Assembly: GCA_964408515.1 (NCBI GenBank)
Contig: CAYOZX010000001.1
Location: 1 to 40,540, forward strand
Length of the DNA stretch: 40,540 nt
DNA from: an uncultured Acidobacteriaceae bacterium
GTDB lineage: Bacteria; Acidobacteriota; Terriglobia; Terriglobales; Acidobacteriaceae
Reading direction: 5' to 3'
Positions 12,749 to 39,434 of the stretch are shown here, one piece after another; within the stretch, counting starts at the first letter, position 1, and every line of letters begins with the position of its first letter. The position numbers were made by a program, and so were the translations under genes. The notes under the pieces were generated by a model that worked only from the letters and a program-made list of their open reading frames with translations, made no database searches and had not been told where the DNA came from.

Positions 12749-15700
12749 CTACTGCCCAAAGGGATCGCTGATCAGCCAGCGGTCCCCGCTCTTGTAGAGC
12801 GCAACCTTGACAGACTTCTGGTTCTGCTTGGTCTGCCCTCCGGGGACCGTAGTCTGAGAGATCAATTCACAGGGAATCTGTGCCGTGTCGCCTGTAATCG
12901 TGGGCTCTCCGTTGGCCAGCAGCTTGAGCACCACCTTGTATCCCGCGGGTGGGTGCAGGGCGTCGAGGTACTGGCTGGTCGCGCGCGGCCAAACCTCCTT
13001 CAACTCCTTCGGCTGCTGGGATTCGAAGGCAGCGTTGAACAAATCGAGCGGCTGCTGCAGGTTCTTCTTCTGCGCCTCGCGCAGGGTCATCTGGTCGAGG
13101 ATCGCCTGCGCATCGGCGCGGTGAGGACTGTTCGGCCGCCGGCCAACAAAGGCGAGCACAGCGTTGCGATCTCTCTTGTCCACCTTAGTCCAGAGAAGAT
13201 CATCAATCCGGCGGGAAGCTTCGTCCGAATGCTTGCCTGAGGGAAAACCGCCCAGGTATTGCTGCAACGCGGCGACGTCGTCGAGGTTGGTCTGGGTCCA
13301 GGCCAGTTCCTGCAACAGCGCTTGAGCTTCTCCGGCGTGCGTGCTGTTTGGATACTTGTTGACAAAGTTCCTGATGTCGGACTGCTGCGAGCTGGCCCGG
13401 GCTTTTGCCCAATCCTGGGCCTCTACCTGCCCCAGGCCGGCGCGGGCCTCGCCGGCATGCCTTCCGTTTGGCAACTTCTGGAGATAGGAGTTCAGTCCGG
13501 CGGTGTCGCGGGACGTGCGGCTCCACAGCAAGTCGTCTGCCTTCGCGGCAGCGAGGTCGTGATACTGACCGGAGGGGTAGCGATTAAGAAAATCATTGAC
13601 GGCCGCCGCATCGTTGCTGTTCTCCACCGCCTGCCAGTCCAGACGGGCGATCTCGCCCTGGGCCTCGTCCGCGTGCTTGCCCTGCCGGTAGCGGTTCAGG
13701 TAGTCGCGAATCGCAGCCGCAGAGTTGCTGTGTTTTGCCTGCGCCCAGTAGAGATCGTCGAGCCGCGACTCGGCCTCCGTATGGTGAGTTCCAGCGGGAT
13801 ACCGCTGCAGGAAATTGTTGACATCTTGGGCGTTGCGGGAGTCCTTGACGCGAAGCCAGTCGGAATCCTCAGAGGCCACTGCGGGGCCGGTGGCTGATGA
13901 TGTCGCAGCCTTAAAGTCGGGTCGCGACAGTTCCACCCGGCCACCGGCTGGAAACTGCCGCGTGATCGGCTTGGGCGGCTCATTCCGGGCGACGATTGCG
14001 ACCTGGTGCTCGCCCGCCGGGACCTCGGCGGAGAAGGTTCCACGAGCGTTGGCTTTGCCCTTGAGTGTGCCGTCCACGAAGATTTGCGACCCGGCGGGGA
14101 TGTCGCGAATCACGAGCTGCCCTGGTTTCTCGCGGACTGTTTGGGCCGACCCTGCCGCAGTCTGTCCCCGCTGGCCAGCCGGGAGCGGGATCATTGAGAT
14201 TTCGATTGAGTTTGCGCCCTGGGCTGTGACCGCGATGGACTTTCGCGCGGTTTCATAGCCTTGCAGCTGGGCTTCGATCTCATAATCCCCGGGCGCCAGC
14301 CTGATGCTGCAGTTCGGTGTCTCGCAGGTCTGACCACTGTTGGCCACCCGAATCGACGCGCCTTCGGGCCTGGTCACCACGCTGACAATAACCTTCGGAG
14401 GCAGAGACTTGATCCACCAGATTCCGGCAACGACGGCCACCAGCAATGAAGCGGCGACGGCAATCGCAGCCATTGGAATCGGAGGCGCCTCGCGCCGTAC
14501 CAGTTTCCTCGCGGGAAGCTGGACTGGCGCCGGAGTAGCGGCTTCCCTTTCGGCCACCGGGGCGGGTGGTTCCTCTGCCGCTTCAGGCGCGGGCTCCACC
14601 ACCGGGCCCGTGAAAGTCTGGGTTAAGGCTGAGGTCGGGGCGGGCGGTACGGCGGCGAAGTCCTGAGTGAGTTCAACGTCCAGTTGGGTCTCCTGCTGGG
14701 CGCGGCGCAGTTCCTCCTGCCTTTTGGCTTCTGCCGCAGCACGAAGTCTCTCCGCTTCTTCGCGCCGGCGTTGCTCCTCCAGTTCCCGGCGCTGCAGCTC
14801 GCGCTGTCTCTCCGCTTCCTCCTGCCGGGCACGCTCCTGCTCGAGGAGGCTTTCTTCTATCTTTGCCTTAGCCCGCGTGAGCTGCGGCTCGTCGGAGAAT
14901 GCTGCCAGGCCGCTTTCGAGATGCCGCAGCGCGTTTTCCAGGTCCCCGCGGTTCTGAGCCTGGCTGGCCTGGGAGAGATGGCCGGACACAATCTGTTGCT
15001 TCTTCCGTTCTTCCACGCGCTCGCGAAGGCTCTGCAAGAGCGCGGGATCGGGGCGCAGCGGCTCGCAGTCGAGCAGGATATGGGCATATTCCCATCCGGA
15101 ATCAAGCGCCGGGTCGAAGGCACGCTGCAGTTGTGCGAGGGCGTCTTTCCGAACGACGGGATCATCGGGGGCGGCCTCACAGCTCTTTTTGAGAGAATCG
15201 AGACCCTTGTCCCACTGGCTTTTTGCGAATGCTTTTTCCGCGGAGGCAAGCAGCTTCTGCGCTTTGGCGCGGAGCTTGATCGCGGTTTGAATTCTTCCGC
15301 CCAGTTCCGCAAGGACCCGGTCTCCGGGAAACTGCTGTTCGCCCTGCTGCAACAGCGCGCCCGCCCGTTCGAGATCGCCGGTACCCAGGGCTGCTTCCAG
15401 TTCGCGTGCGTGGGCAGCCTTCCTGGCGGCAAGCTCCTCCTCCGACAACCGCCTCAGGCGGGCAATATTGCGATCGAGGTCTGGATGCTGGGGATAGATC
15501 GTGCGGACGGCGTCCCATCGTTTGAGCGCTTCGTCGTAGCGCTTCGCCTCTTCCTGGGACCGCGCCTCGTCTGACAGCTGGGTCACGCGAGCGTTGAGCT
15601 CGCGGACCTGGGTCAGCTCGAGTTCAAGAGTTGGGTCGTCAGGATACCGGGTCAAGGCGTCCTGGAGCGTTTGAGTGCGATAGTCCAGGGTCTCCTGCTC

Positions 15701-37526: not shown

Positions 37527-39434
37527 TCAAAACCTCTGAGTGAGGCGGGTCACGACGGAAACCACGGTTTGCCAGAGGTCACGGGGGAGGTTCGGATCCT
37601 GCCAGAGCATGTATCCCACCCAACCCAGGGTCAGGAGCAGAACCAGGAATAGGAACAGATTTGTCCAGCTGGCCTTGCGCGGGCTGGAAGCTCCTGCGGC
37701 GGATCTCTTGACCGCGGCCGCGGGACGCTGAAGCACCACGGTCTTGTTGGCGCGCTGGGCCACGTTGCGGAGGCGGGTCAGAATCTCGTTGAGGTCGGTG
37801 GTCCGCTTCTCCACGTGCTTCTCCATCATCCCTTCCAGCAGGTCCGACAGGGCTGTGGGACAGTCCGGCAGCAGCGACTTCAGCGGTTGAGCCTTCGATC
37901 CCAGGTCGGCATGCCAGCGCATCCAGTCGATATCACTGCGCTGGTCCGGAAAGGCCTGTTCAAACAGTTTGCGTCCCAGCAGAATTTCGTAAAACATCAC
38001 CCCCAGCGCGTATACATTGGCCGCCGGAAGGTTGGAATCGCTGCCGCCTTTTTCCAGGAACATCTCCGGCGCGGCATAGCGGGGATTGCCCATCACGGTG
38101 GTGGCCGCGGCCGCGGAAGCAGGCACGGTCCGAATCGTGGCCTTGCCGAGGAGATCGAACTTGATGTTCTGGGGGATGAGCGCATCATTCCGGCCCTTGG
38201 CCTCATACATGGCAATCAGGGCCCGGACCGTCGCCACAAAAGCGGGCACTACCTGATCAAGGTCGGGAGGATTGTCCTTCAAGTAGCCGGCGAGATTTTC
38301 TGGCTGTTTGCCGAGTATTTGCTCCAGGCGAGCCGCTACCTGCGGCGTCACGTTGGCCGGGGCGGGACTCGGGCCGGGCGCAGGACTTGGCACCGGGGCA
38401 GGACGGGCCTTGATCTCTATCTTGGGCGCCGGCTTCAACTCCGAAGCGAGGGCGCCCTGGCTGGGGGCAGGAGGGGGCGGAGACGCCGCGCGGAATGATG
38501 ACGGCGGAGCCGGTAGCGGCACGGGTTTCGGCGGCTCTTTCGGCCGAGAGCCGAGGCCAGAGTCTGCGGCCAAAACGGAGGGCGCCGACCGGAAGGCAGC
38601 GATGGTCTCATGGGAGACGCGGCCGCTCCGATGGGCCTCGTCAGCGGAGGCCGCAGAGGCGAAAGCGCGCCGAATGGCATCGCTGAAGGCGCGGGCGGTC
38701 GCGTACCGCGCTTCAGCAGACTTGGCCAGGGCAGCAGCGCACACTTCGTCGAAACGATCGGGCACTGCGGGATTGACCTGGGAAGGCGGCCGCTCCTTCT
38801 CATCGCTGACGCGACGAATCAGATCCTGCCCCTGCCCGGCGAAAGGATGGGCTCCGGTAAGGAGTTCATAGAAGATCGCGCCGGCGGAAAAAATGTCGCT
38901 ACGCCGATCTAGCGGCAGCTTCTTCAATTGTTCCGGTGACATGTAGCTGGAGACTTGCTCACCGATTCTGGCGATCCCGAAATTGATGATCCGGAGCTGG
39001 CCTTTACCGGTCAGGAGCAGGTTGGAGGGCTTGATCGCGCCATGAGCGATGCCCATCCCGTGGGCGTAGTCGAGAGCATCCAGAAGCTGCCCGGAGAGGT
39101 TCACTGCATCGGGCACCGGCACCCGGAAGCGTTCTTTCAGATGCCAGCCGCTCGCCTCTTCCATCACGATGTAGAGCAGGCCGGCGTCCTCCCCGCAGCC
39201 GTACACCTGGACAATCCCCGGATGCTGCAGGGAACTTGCCTCCCGTGCGCCACGCTGGAACTGCAGAGAAGACCCGTGGCGCTCAAAAACATCCTTGGGA
39301 ACGGCCTTGAGCACCACGCCTGACTGGGAGGAAGCATCAACGCCCTTGTAGATTCGCCACACGGGTCCAACTGCGACGGTTGCAGTTATTTCATATTTTC
39401 CGAGCCGCTTGGGTTGGGGCGTGGAGCTGTGCAT
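37527..39434 (-). CDS. Tail-anchored tandem kinase-like protein with degenerate catalytic motifs (predicted pseudokinase)
   Basis: The N-terminal Hanks-type fold reads HGAIKPSN in place of HRDxKPxN and NFG in place of DFG, and its glycine loop is degenerate (VAVGPVWRIY). A second kinase-like lobe (LIPQNIKFD...GNPRYAAPE...ANVYALGVMFYEILLG) also lacks HRD. The C-terminal TM is WTNLFLFLVLLLTLGWVGYMLW. Confidence 0.75.
   Translation of the reverse strand: MHSSTPQPKRLGKYEITATVAVGPVWRIYKGVDASSQSGVVLKAVPKDVFERHGSSLQFQRGAREASSLQHPGIVQVYGCGEDAGLLYIVMEEASGWHLKERFRVPVPDAVNLSGQLLDALDYAHGMGIAHGAIKPSNLLLTGKGQLRIINFGIARIGEQVSSYMSPEQLKKLPLDRRSDIFSAGAIFYELLTGAHPFAGQGQDLIRRVSDEKERPPSQVNPAVPDRFDEVCAAALAKSAEARYATARAFSDAIRRAFASAASADEAHRSGRVSHETIAAFRSAPSVLAADSGLGSRPKEPPKPVPLPAPPSSFRAASPPPPAPSQGALASELKPAPKIEIKARPAPVPSPAPGPSPAPANVTPQVAARLEQILGKQPENLAGYLKDNPPDLDQVVPAFVATVRALIAMYEAKGRNDALIPQNIKFDLLGKATIRTVPASAAAATTVMGNPRYAAPEMFLEKGGSDSNLPAANVYALGVMFYEILLGRKLFEQAFPDQRSDIDWMRWHADLGSKAQPLKSLLPDCPTALSDLLEGMMEKHVEKRTTDLNEILTRLRNVAQRANKTVVLQRPAAAVKRSAAGASSPRKASWTNLFLFLVLLLTLGWVGYMLWQDPNLPRDLWQTVVSVVTRLTQRF

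Follow-up and report, generated by a model that had tools for sequence, protein, structure and literature searches.

The DNA described here is a 40,540-nt stretch from an uncultured Acidobacteriaceae bacterium (positions 1 to 40,540 of contig CAYOZX010000001.1, assembly GCA_964408515.1), referred to below as the window. It carries a compact plus-strand gene cluster for a type III secretion system (T3SS), which extends from a sigma-factor gene to the gene of a small tail-anchored FHA protein (19500-37448; open reading frame (ORF) listing together with Pfam and NCBIfam scans). A very large receptor kinase is encoded to the left of this cluster and a tandem pseudokinase to the right, and the original prediction was that threonine phosphorylation may control secretion. 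The features on which this question turns are as follows.

12749..19018, minus strand: giant single-pass receptor Hanks Ser/Thr kinase (Pfam, motifs, transmembrane (TM) prediction, orthologues)
19019..19499, no strand: divergent intergenic region with two conserved blocks (comparison of loci)
19500..20267, plus strand: FliA/WhiG-like sigma-70 family factor, 255 aa, first gene of the cluster (Pfam Sigma70_r2/r4)
25073..26509, plus strand: SctQ with an N-terminal FHA domain (aa 88-151) and a C-terminal SpoA/FliN domain (Pfam/NCBIfam)
36942..37448, plus strand: tail-anchored FHA protein (FHA-TM), 168 aa, with the FHA domain at aa 28-86, a linker and a TM helix at 150-168 (FHA E 4.2e-12)
37527..39434, minus strand: tail-anchored tandem pseudokinase, 635 aa (Pkinase E 2.5e-42 in two stretches)

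FHA-TM is encoded by the last gene of the operon, and its layout resembles the N-terminus of SctD. The phosphothreonine (pThr) pocket was judged by reference to Rad53 FHA1, in which it is formed by G69, R70, S85, H88 and N107 (Gly-Arg, Ser-x-x-His, Asn). The equivalent residues of FHA-TM, found in the motifs GR, SREH and SSNGT, are invariant in 13 orthologues. The closest solved relatives of the protein are the phospho-dependent FHA domains of ArnA and Rad53 FHA1, not SctD. The pThr-binding pocket of FHA-TM is predicted to be intact.

The pseudokinase gene converges on that of FHA-TM across a gap of 78 nt. The protein consists of a PknB-like fold (aa 10-262), a disordered Pro-rich linker (284-363), a C-lobe module (365-565) and a TM helix (593-611). 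In the first domain HRD is replaced by HGA and DFG by NFG, the G-loop is degenerate (AVGPVW) and the activation loop is 10 residues shorter. An AlphaFold2 (AF2) model (pLDDT 73.6) matched the PknB kinase with this domain (Foldseek E 1e-18, TM-target 0.85), and the top of the fold search was occupied by PknB, PknA and PknI, not MviN. The second module (~aa 365-565) matches only positions 154-253 of the Pkinase profile, forms a helical C-lobe in the AF2 model and has no N-lobe; a BLASTP comparison of it with the giant kinase domain was not significant (E 0.3). Partial Pfam matches in orthologues and the AF2 model identify this module as a predicted kinase C-lobe only. The membrane-anchored pseudokinase proposed for the right border is thus present and converges on FHA-TM, but HGA and NFG lie in one complete domain, and the second of the two proposed kinase-like lobes is the C-lobe module.

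Catalytic loss is shared by the whole pseudokinase family. The G-loop, HRD and DFG occur together in 0 of 30 aligned relatives (41-68% identity, plus a ~750-aa DUF8082-tagged form), and the family keeps the VAIK Lys, SPE, the αF Asp and the αH-αI Arg. The second module is better conserved than the first. The idea of a decayed gene was rejected, as the loss of catalysis is family-wide and the other kinase motifs are conserved. To judge from the alignment, the family is long-lived and maintained.

The best candidate for a phospho-acceptor in the pseudokinase is Thr565 (ANKTVVL), a lead and not a demonstrated motif. It is invariant in 25/25 sampled members, distant ones included, and is situated at the end of the last helix, on the edge of a low-confidence disordered stretch and 25-45 residues before the TM anchor. 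Because the pseudokinase and FHA-TM are both tail-anchored with cytoplasmic domains, the FHA domain could reach this residue.

Related loci, designated here by L numbers, were retrieved with a profile of SctT, which was picked for its mid-cluster position. The profile yielded 15 acidobacterial loci from species-representative genomes and 41 metagenome contigs. Synteny was followed in ~35 Acidobacteriota loci overall, of which 24 were informative for a giant kinase at the left border. Close relatives with an organism name are all metagenome-assembled genomes (MAGs) of Acidobacteriota (Terriglobia, Ca. Sulfotelmatobacter and Bryobacteraceae). All retrieved loci are collinear from sigma to FHA-TM. 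A convergent pseudokinase gene follows FHA-TM in 16 of the 17 loci with a readable right flank (the window, L001/8, L003/7, L004, L005, L009=L070, L010, L015, L017, L041, L046, L054, L057, L064, L069 and L072). The 17th locus is L020; there, and in L019, L021 and L071, the tandem pseudokinase is found at the left border, divergent from sigma. Two of the right-border loci have a LysM (peptidoglycan-binding) gene between FHA-TM and the pseudokinase (L001, 12125-13330; L003, 12086-13294), and L011, L013 and L014 stop in the LysM gene at the flank limit and are therefore uninformative for the pseudokinase. A LysM gene after FHA-TM is seen in several relatives and is absent from the window.

Wherever the flanks of an acidobacterial locus can be read, the pseudokinase is found next to the cluster, in three arrangements and down to 36-50% protein identity. 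Similarly, FHA-TM adjoins seven of the eight pseudokinase family members that were looked up. An intact kinase is also adjacent wherever the flank is long enough. Where the border has no giant kinase, this neighbour is a different enzyme: kinases of 614 and 591 aa are encoded directly upstream of the pseudokinase in L004 and L005 respectively, and Pkinase-TPR-DUF8082 proteins of 734 and 749 aa are divergent from it in L069 and L070. All four alternative kinases (591-749 aa) have complete catalytic motifs. The giant kinase of L004 is located 3 kb further out, 6.4 kb from the pseudokinase. A gene for a CsgG/FlgT_C-like lipoprotein (8781-9755) was also noted in L004, between the 614-aa kinase and the pseudokinase; its product could be an outer-membrane component in that lineage.

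Acidobacteriota possess many Hanks kinases (a kinase search in this context returned 5740 kinase matches), and in such kinase-rich genomes all of these adjacencies might have arisen by chance. This is extremely improbable. The adjacency is conserved over ~35 loci and three arrangements, by which chance is effectively refuted for the pseudokinase, and the family-specific pseudokinase occurs almost only beside FHA-TM. In a crude count, 17 kinase-like N-domains were located within 3 kb of the cluster edge (89 kb) and 7 in the 121 kb beyond; each of these 7 belongs to a gene beside the border pseudokinase or one gene away from the cluster, so that no unrelated kinase was seen in ~100 kb of distal flank. 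The conserved theme is a T3SS with FHA-TM, the pseudokinase and a kinase predicted to be active, which differs between loci in kind and in position. The association has persisted in three or more rearranged layouts, which points to selection. The original prediction of a hard-wired kinase, pseudokinase and FHA arrangement around a T3SS therefore holds for the theme, with the pseudokinase and FHA-TM at the cluster border in all readable loci, but the particular kinase of the window is replaceable. Of the two kinase-family genes, the pseudokinase clearly withstands the refuting condition set with the original prediction, a lack of synteny in other genomes, and the giant kinase does so only partly.

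In the window, the predicted active kinase at the border is the giant receptor kinase, present on the left with every catalytic motif as had been proposed. Its ORF codes for 2089 aa from a GTG; an alternative ATG at 18994 gives 2081 aa and is the likelier start, since orthologues align from residue 7-9. The Pkinase domain (Pfam, aa 20-267, E 4e-51) is followed by TPR and PEGA matches. The motifs GRGGMG, VAIK, αC Glu (FYREAQ), HRDIKPAN, DFG and SPE are all intact and the activation loop contains TRT, a set from which an active Hanks-type kinase is predicted. Behind the kinase domain are ~1200 aa of TPR/helical repeats, one TM helix (1516-1534) and periplasmic PEGA and repeat domains; the predicted topology places ~1515 aa in the cytoplasm and ~555 aa in the periplasm. 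Orthologues are abundant in Acidobacteriota at 38-66% identity and form >120 clusters of ~2000-aa proteins. Along the gene the GC content increases from 0.55 to 0.62-0.66.

The giant kinase gene is divergent from sigma (or SctI) at the left border in ~10 of the 24 informative loci, namely the window, L007, L008, L018, L025, L027, L033, L045, L057 and, behind the left-border pseudokinase, L071. Kinase identity across these border loci is 46-92%. The arrangement is scattered over the branches of a neighbour-joining tree of SctR+S+T+U, which serves as a rough guide and is too crude for counting gains and losses.

The intergenic region between the giant kinase and sigma genes, given as 480 nt in the original prediction, measures 481 nt (505 nt counted from ATG 18994). 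Its first conserved block (19153-19195) reads TTGCAG-17-CACAAT in reverse complement and is kept even in L027, with a kinase identity of only 46%; it is likely to be the giant kinase promoter. The second block (19299-19327) is a sigma70-like promoter site, TTGACA-17-TACGAT, and is followed by a conserved 5' leader of ~170 nt; within it, a hairpin (TTGCGGC...GCCGCAA) directly precedes the ribosome-binding site of the sigma gene. The sigma-side promoter and leader are conserved in the window, L007, L008, L018, L025, L027 and L033. The leader may be regulatory; an Rfam scan of the intergenic region returned no family and only sub-threshold chance matches. The sigma gene starts at ATG 19500 behind a GAGGAG ribosome-binding site. 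This start was chosen because the site is good and the resulting 255 aa agree with the 256-aa orthologues. A start at TTG 19299 was rejected, this TTG being part of the -35 box of the promoter-like TTGACA-17-TACGAT. The sigma protein scores 114 bits with the NCBIfam model FliA_WhiG, under the cut-off of that model.

The giant kinase and sigma genes point away from each other, and a conserved promoter and 170-nt leader lie between them. This arrangement would also suit a module in which the kinase and pseudokinase control transcription of the cluster, by way of the FliA-like sigma factor or of some undetected anti-sigma factor, and not the assembled machine. Sigma is the first cluster gene in most loci. 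However, the sigma gene is absent in L014 and L057, and L057 has both the giant kinase and the pseudokinase; in this locus (1852-2142) the giant kinase is divergent directly from an SctI-like gene. The pseudokinase and FHA-TM are, moreover, membrane-anchored and mostly encoded at the far end of the cluster, beside each other and not beside sigma. No FlgM-like anti-sigma factor was found among the small conserved ORFs at E<=1. Control of transcription is considered quite unlikely as the role of the module.

The cluster itself is by profile scores a non-flagellar T3SS, because SctV, SctU, SctN, SctR and SctL exceed the NCBIfam curated T3SS cut-offs and the above-cut-off hrcV score of SctV beats FlhA; several other comparisons are closer, in that several T3SS subunits score nearly as high against flagellar models. 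Of the canonical injectisome core (SctC, J, N, Q, R, S, T, U and V), the export apparatus SctRSTUV, the ATPase SctN, SctJ and SctQ are present, and the secretin SctC was not found. In addition to sigma, SctQ and FHA-TM, the cluster encodes the following.

20269-20820, plus strand: SctI/needle_F-like protein (orthologues in L025, L027 and L071 match PF09392)
20848-21684, plus strand: SctJ (Pfam/NCBIfam)
21681-21968, plus strand: conserved ORF, 95 aa
21961-22593, plus strand: SctL (Pfam/NCBIfam)
22610-23947, plus strand: SctN ATPase (Pfam/NCBIfam)
23950-24450, plus strand: SctO (Pfam/NCBIfam)
24447..25061, plus strand: SctP/FliK-like length-control protein (family scan)
26448-26942, plus strand: FliO-like protein (Pfam/NCBIfam)
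26912-27829, plus strand: SctR (Pfam/NCBIfam)
27840-28106, plus strand: SctS (Pfam/NCBIfam)
28120-28941, plus strand: SctT (Pfam/NCBIfam)
28973-30031, plus strand: SctU (Pfam/NCBIfam)
30055..32212, plus strand: four proteins, of 133 aa (no assigned role), 128 aa (TPR, chaperone-like), 196 aa and 172 aa (TPR) (family scans)
32332..34500, plus strand: SctV export gate (FHIPEP E 3.7e-233; NCBIfam hrcV 792.6 bits)
34514..35383, minus strand: conserved 289-aa protein on the opposite strand inside the cluster (same place in all related loci)
35437..36938, plus strand: four small conserved proteins, of 101 aa, 121 aa, 134 aa (TPR) and 120 aa (family scans)

No secretin or SctD periplasmic domain was detected among the window ORFs scanned or in the gene tables of related loci, and Pfam/NCBIfam scans of the window ORFs revealed no SctK and no translocon. 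A secretin gene may be located elsewhere in the genome. The only SctD-like candidate in the window is the 168-aa FHA-TM protein. The 196-aa protein (31058-31648) has an orthologue in L070 that matches T3SS_needle_F (PF09392). With the protein at 20269-20820 there are two needle_F/SctI-like proteins, and the system may therefore not be strictly 'needle-less'. The fusion of an FHA domain to SctQ was found in 94 clusters of full-length homologues by a word-index search; the named ones belong to Acidobacteriota (Terriglobales and Bryobacteraceae), most being without an organism name. An exhaustive search reached ~28% identity, and its sole named distant match was from Bryobacteraceae. No FHA-SctQ fusion from outside Acidobacteriota, Myxococcota included, was present among the named matches, most matches being without taxonomy.

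A literature search found no description of an acidobacterial non-flagellar T3SS, and a 2012 survey reported these systems only in Proteobacteria, Chlamydiae and Verrucomicrobia (PMC3459982). The acidobacterial secretin-less T3SS is apparently undescribed so far. The nearest known counterparts are the 'Myxo' non-flagellar T3SS and the needle-less T3SS* of M. xanthus, whose secretin-less gene content has been described (PMC3459982; PMC10849154). By gene content alone, not phylogenetic placement, they resemble the cluster in the export apparatus, ATPase, SctJ and SctI-like rod and in the lack of a secretin, a large SctD ring protein and a translocon. Both also retain FliO, which was until recently thought to be flagellum-specific and is kept in Myxococcota and some Pseudomonadota virulence T3SSs (vT3SS) (PMC12248157). 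The system of the window differs from them in its acidobacterial host, the FHA-bearing SctQ, the FHA-TM and pseudokinase end, and the two needle_F-like proteins.

Gene content, motif status, topology and conserved synteny can be read directly from the loci, and they support the link of the pseudokinase and FHA-TM to the T3SS well. The conserved neighbourhood in turn suggests control of the machine by phosphorylation; which kinase acts on which substrate, and with what consequence for secretion, we infer. In the reading favoured here, which is judged slightly better than an even bet, FHA-TM and the pseudokinase constitute a pThr signalling module built into the neighbourhood of a secretin-less T3SS. 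An active Hanks kinase nearby, in the window the 2081-aa receptor kinase, would sense a periplasmic or envelope cue via its ectodomain and would phosphorylate one or more threonines of the pseudokinase scaffold, the best candidate being Thr565. FHA-TM would then dock on the pThr at the inner membrane. The resulting complex might recruit or gate the export apparatus, possibly via the FHA-bearing SctQ, and could take the place of SctK and of the cytoplasmic domain of SctD, both of which are missing. The giant kinase is plausible as the cognate kinase of this module, although replaceable. A bolder version is doubtful: the pseudokinase and FHA-TM would be integral, phosphorylation-gated parts of the basal body that together with FHA-SctQ replace SctD and SctK, and a receptor kinase reading an envelope or contact signal would switch assembly or firing. 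If true, this would be the first T3SS in which architecture, beyond regulation, depends on a kinase/pseudokinase/FHA triad.

Several findings weigh against a phosphorylation-dependent module. The FHA domain of SctQ (E 2.8e-12) keeps Gly-Arg and His of the reference pocket, but in all orthologues Ser is replaced by Ala or Gly and Asn by Leu, and because of these replacements canonical pThr binding by this domain is doubtful. The two FHA modules expected in the cluster are thus both there, but canonical pThr residues are found in FHA-TM only. A Leu or Met at position +3 from the threonine suits many FHA domains; the residue at this distance from Thr565 is Leu or Met in close relatives and varies as L/M/V/I/A/S/G in the family, without a strict FHA-docking motif. 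Neither the window ORFs nor the annotated flanks of L001-L006, L025-27 and L069-72 yielded a PP2C or SpoIIE phosphatase. The eighth pseudokinase family member that was looked up, P0066 of a distinct subfamily (P0064-69), has no T3SS within 10 kb; its locus, L002, is a kinase cluster comprising a DUF8082 kinase, a giant kinase, an outer-membrane-barrel protein and the pseudokinase. At the left border, ~14 of the 24 loci have no giant kinase and possess instead other genes without assigned role, a Trans_reg_C regulator or MreB. The giant kinase also occurs without a nearby T3SS, in L002 and L026, such an orthologue being 60% identical, and it is coupled more tightly to an outer-membrane-barrel-like protein (6/6 loci) than to the T3SS. 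Common descent links the loci, and the counts given above therefore do not represent independent events. Finally, the window sequence was found only in DNA runs, which are rock metagenomes.

Some of these points are shared by a purely structural explanation, in which the pseudokinase and FHA-TM form an inner-membrane scaffold that replaces the SctD cytoplasmic domain and SctK in the manner of EssB/YukC, phosphorylation plays no part and the neighbouring kinases are irrelevant. Binding of pThr is not usual for SctD-type FHA domains in injectisomes, the FHA domain of SctQ is degenerate and no phosphatase is nearby. The near-universal presence of the pseudokinase and FHA-TM at the cluster border, and the lack of a full SctD or an SctK in the window ORFs, would be expected of such a scaffold as well. 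However, FHA-TM keeps all canonical pThr contacts in every orthologue, which would be superfluous for a phospho-independent adaptor, and an intact kinase has been kept beside the module through several rearrangements. A role that is structural only is regarded as unlikely.

The barrel-like partner of the giant kinase is encoded in the window next to the kinase gene (11177..12712, plus strand). It is a 511-aa signal-peptide protein and a distant relative of PF13557 (Phenol_MetA_deg), recognized by its N-terminal hydrophobic segment and its homologues; the protein itself has no Pfam or NCBIfam match. Homologues with 30-81% identity flank the giant kinase in all six loci compared (the window and the five listed below), and those of L002, L004 and L026 match PF13557, a predicted outer-membrane barrel.

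L002, 7963-9399: homologue of the 511-aa protein
L004, 3599-5011: homologue of the 511-aa protein
L025, 12194-13714: homologue of the 511-aa protein
L026, 16105-17562: homologue of the 511-aa protein
L027, 8107-9582: homologue of the 511-aa protein

This conserved adjacency suggests a trans-envelope pair of kinase and outer-membrane protein. In L013 a weak homologue of the 511-aa protein was observed directly upstream of sigma, without a kinase.

The giant kinase may accordingly belong to a separate envelope-sensing module with its barrel-like partner and be no more than a neighbour of the T3SS in some lineages; any cognate kinase of the pseudokinase and FHA-TM would then be another enzyme. 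Besides the six loci with the partner, the two loci in which the kinase has no T3SS and the loci in which it is off the left border are consistent with this, and the kinase family is larger than that of FHA-SctQ (>120 against 94 clusters). On the other hand, the divergent layout of the kinase with sigma or SctI recurs at 46-92% kinase identity, and among the scattered tree branches that have it are L057, which splits off first in the main clade, and L071. Conservation of the promoter block on the kinase side goes together with that of the block on the sigma side, and the giant kinase is near a member of the pseudokinase family in L002 and L004 too. A separate module is a serious possibility, though one that falls short of probable, and it is compatible with the core pseudokinase/FHA module being real.

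Ser/Thr-kinase/FHA switches are established for type VI secretion systems (T6SS). In the PpkA/PppA/Fha1 pathway of the P. aeruginosa H1-T6SS, the kinase makes pThr and the FHA scaffold activates the machine. The pThr module proposed here resembles that pathway: both have a receptor kinase of the Hanks type that crosses the membrane once and has its sensor domain in the periplasm, and in both an FHA protein is encoded in the secretion cluster. It differs in the secretion system, the lack of a PP2C, the extra conserved pseudokinase, the membrane-anchored FHA protein and the interchangeable kinase.

Within T3SSs, chlamydial PknD phosphorylates CdsD, an FHA-bearing SctD homologue (PMC2765968), a pair also named in the original prediction. 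In both cases an inner-membrane T3SS component bears an FHA domain. CdsD, however, is a complete SctD that includes a periplasmic ring domain; FHA-TM ends with its TM helix, and the PknD-CdsD pair involves no pseudokinase partner, in contrast to the system described here. To our knowledge, PknD-CdsD is the only reported Ser/Thr-kinase link to a T3SS basal body, and chlamydial pknD, whose position relative to the T3SS genes is not given in that paper, is not known to lie near them.

A similar logic of active kinase, membrane pseudokinase and FHA domain is found in M. tuberculosis, in which PknB phosphorylates the pseudokinase tail of MviN and this recruits the FHA domain of FhaA (Gee et al. 2012, via PMC12599244). 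In the window pseudokinase the invariant Thr565, a candidate acceptor, is in the juxtamembrane tail. The output of MviN-FhaA is peptidoglycan precursor flipping, not secretion. The pseudokinase of the window differs from MviN in being a separate, tail-anchored protein with an extra C-lobe module, and the FHA protein, too, is anchored in the membrane. In the type VIIb secretion system (T7SSb), EssB/YukC serves as a membrane pseudokinase scaffold (PMC12599244). It is comparable in its single pass, cytoplasmic pseudokinase domain, degraded G-loop, shortened activation loop and location with secretion genes. Topology and TM position are opposite, and the T7SSb context is without an FHA partner. 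No closeness of sequence or fold between EssB/YukC and the window pseudokinase was detected, and EssB/YukC was absent from the top 50 fold matches.

Kinase/FHA control of secretion machines is thus known, and a T3SS with conserved pseudokinase and FHA-TM neighbours suggests a new form of it. A predicted pThr reader (FHA-TM) with a putative dedicated pseudokinase scaffold is part of the conserved T3SS neighbourhood across a phylum-level radiation. The secretin-less 'ancestral-type' T3SS is also extended from Myxococcales to Acidobacteriota, which are abundant soil bacteria with a poorly known cell biology, and a well-defined family is added to the barely studied bacterial pseudokinases. The sequence of kinase, Thr565 of the pseudokinase and FHA-TM docking provides a testable model for the anchoring or triggering of a reduced T3SS.

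Other observations concern minor features of the cluster and its surroundings. The 134-aa TPR protein has a weak HrpB1/HrpK-like match. The 289-aa minus-strand protein has no Pfam or NCBIfam match and no TM helix. Two ORFs that overlap its region were rejected as genes, as neither has a family match and the 289-aa gene is called in all relatives: a 1000-aa ORF (32209-35211, minus strand), which also overlaps SctV, and a 158-aa ORF (34964-35440, plus strand). In several MFD MAG contigs, frameshifts split core T3SS genes (SctV in L001/L008; SctV, SctI and SctN in L009; also L017 and L018). Errors of long-read assembly, and not pseudogene formation, are the probable cause, since the genes around them are unbroken. 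Upstream in the window, a BlaR1-type M56 peptidase and an rve_3 integrase/IS element (333-1754 and 1975-3006) are encoded, which are unrelated to the cluster.

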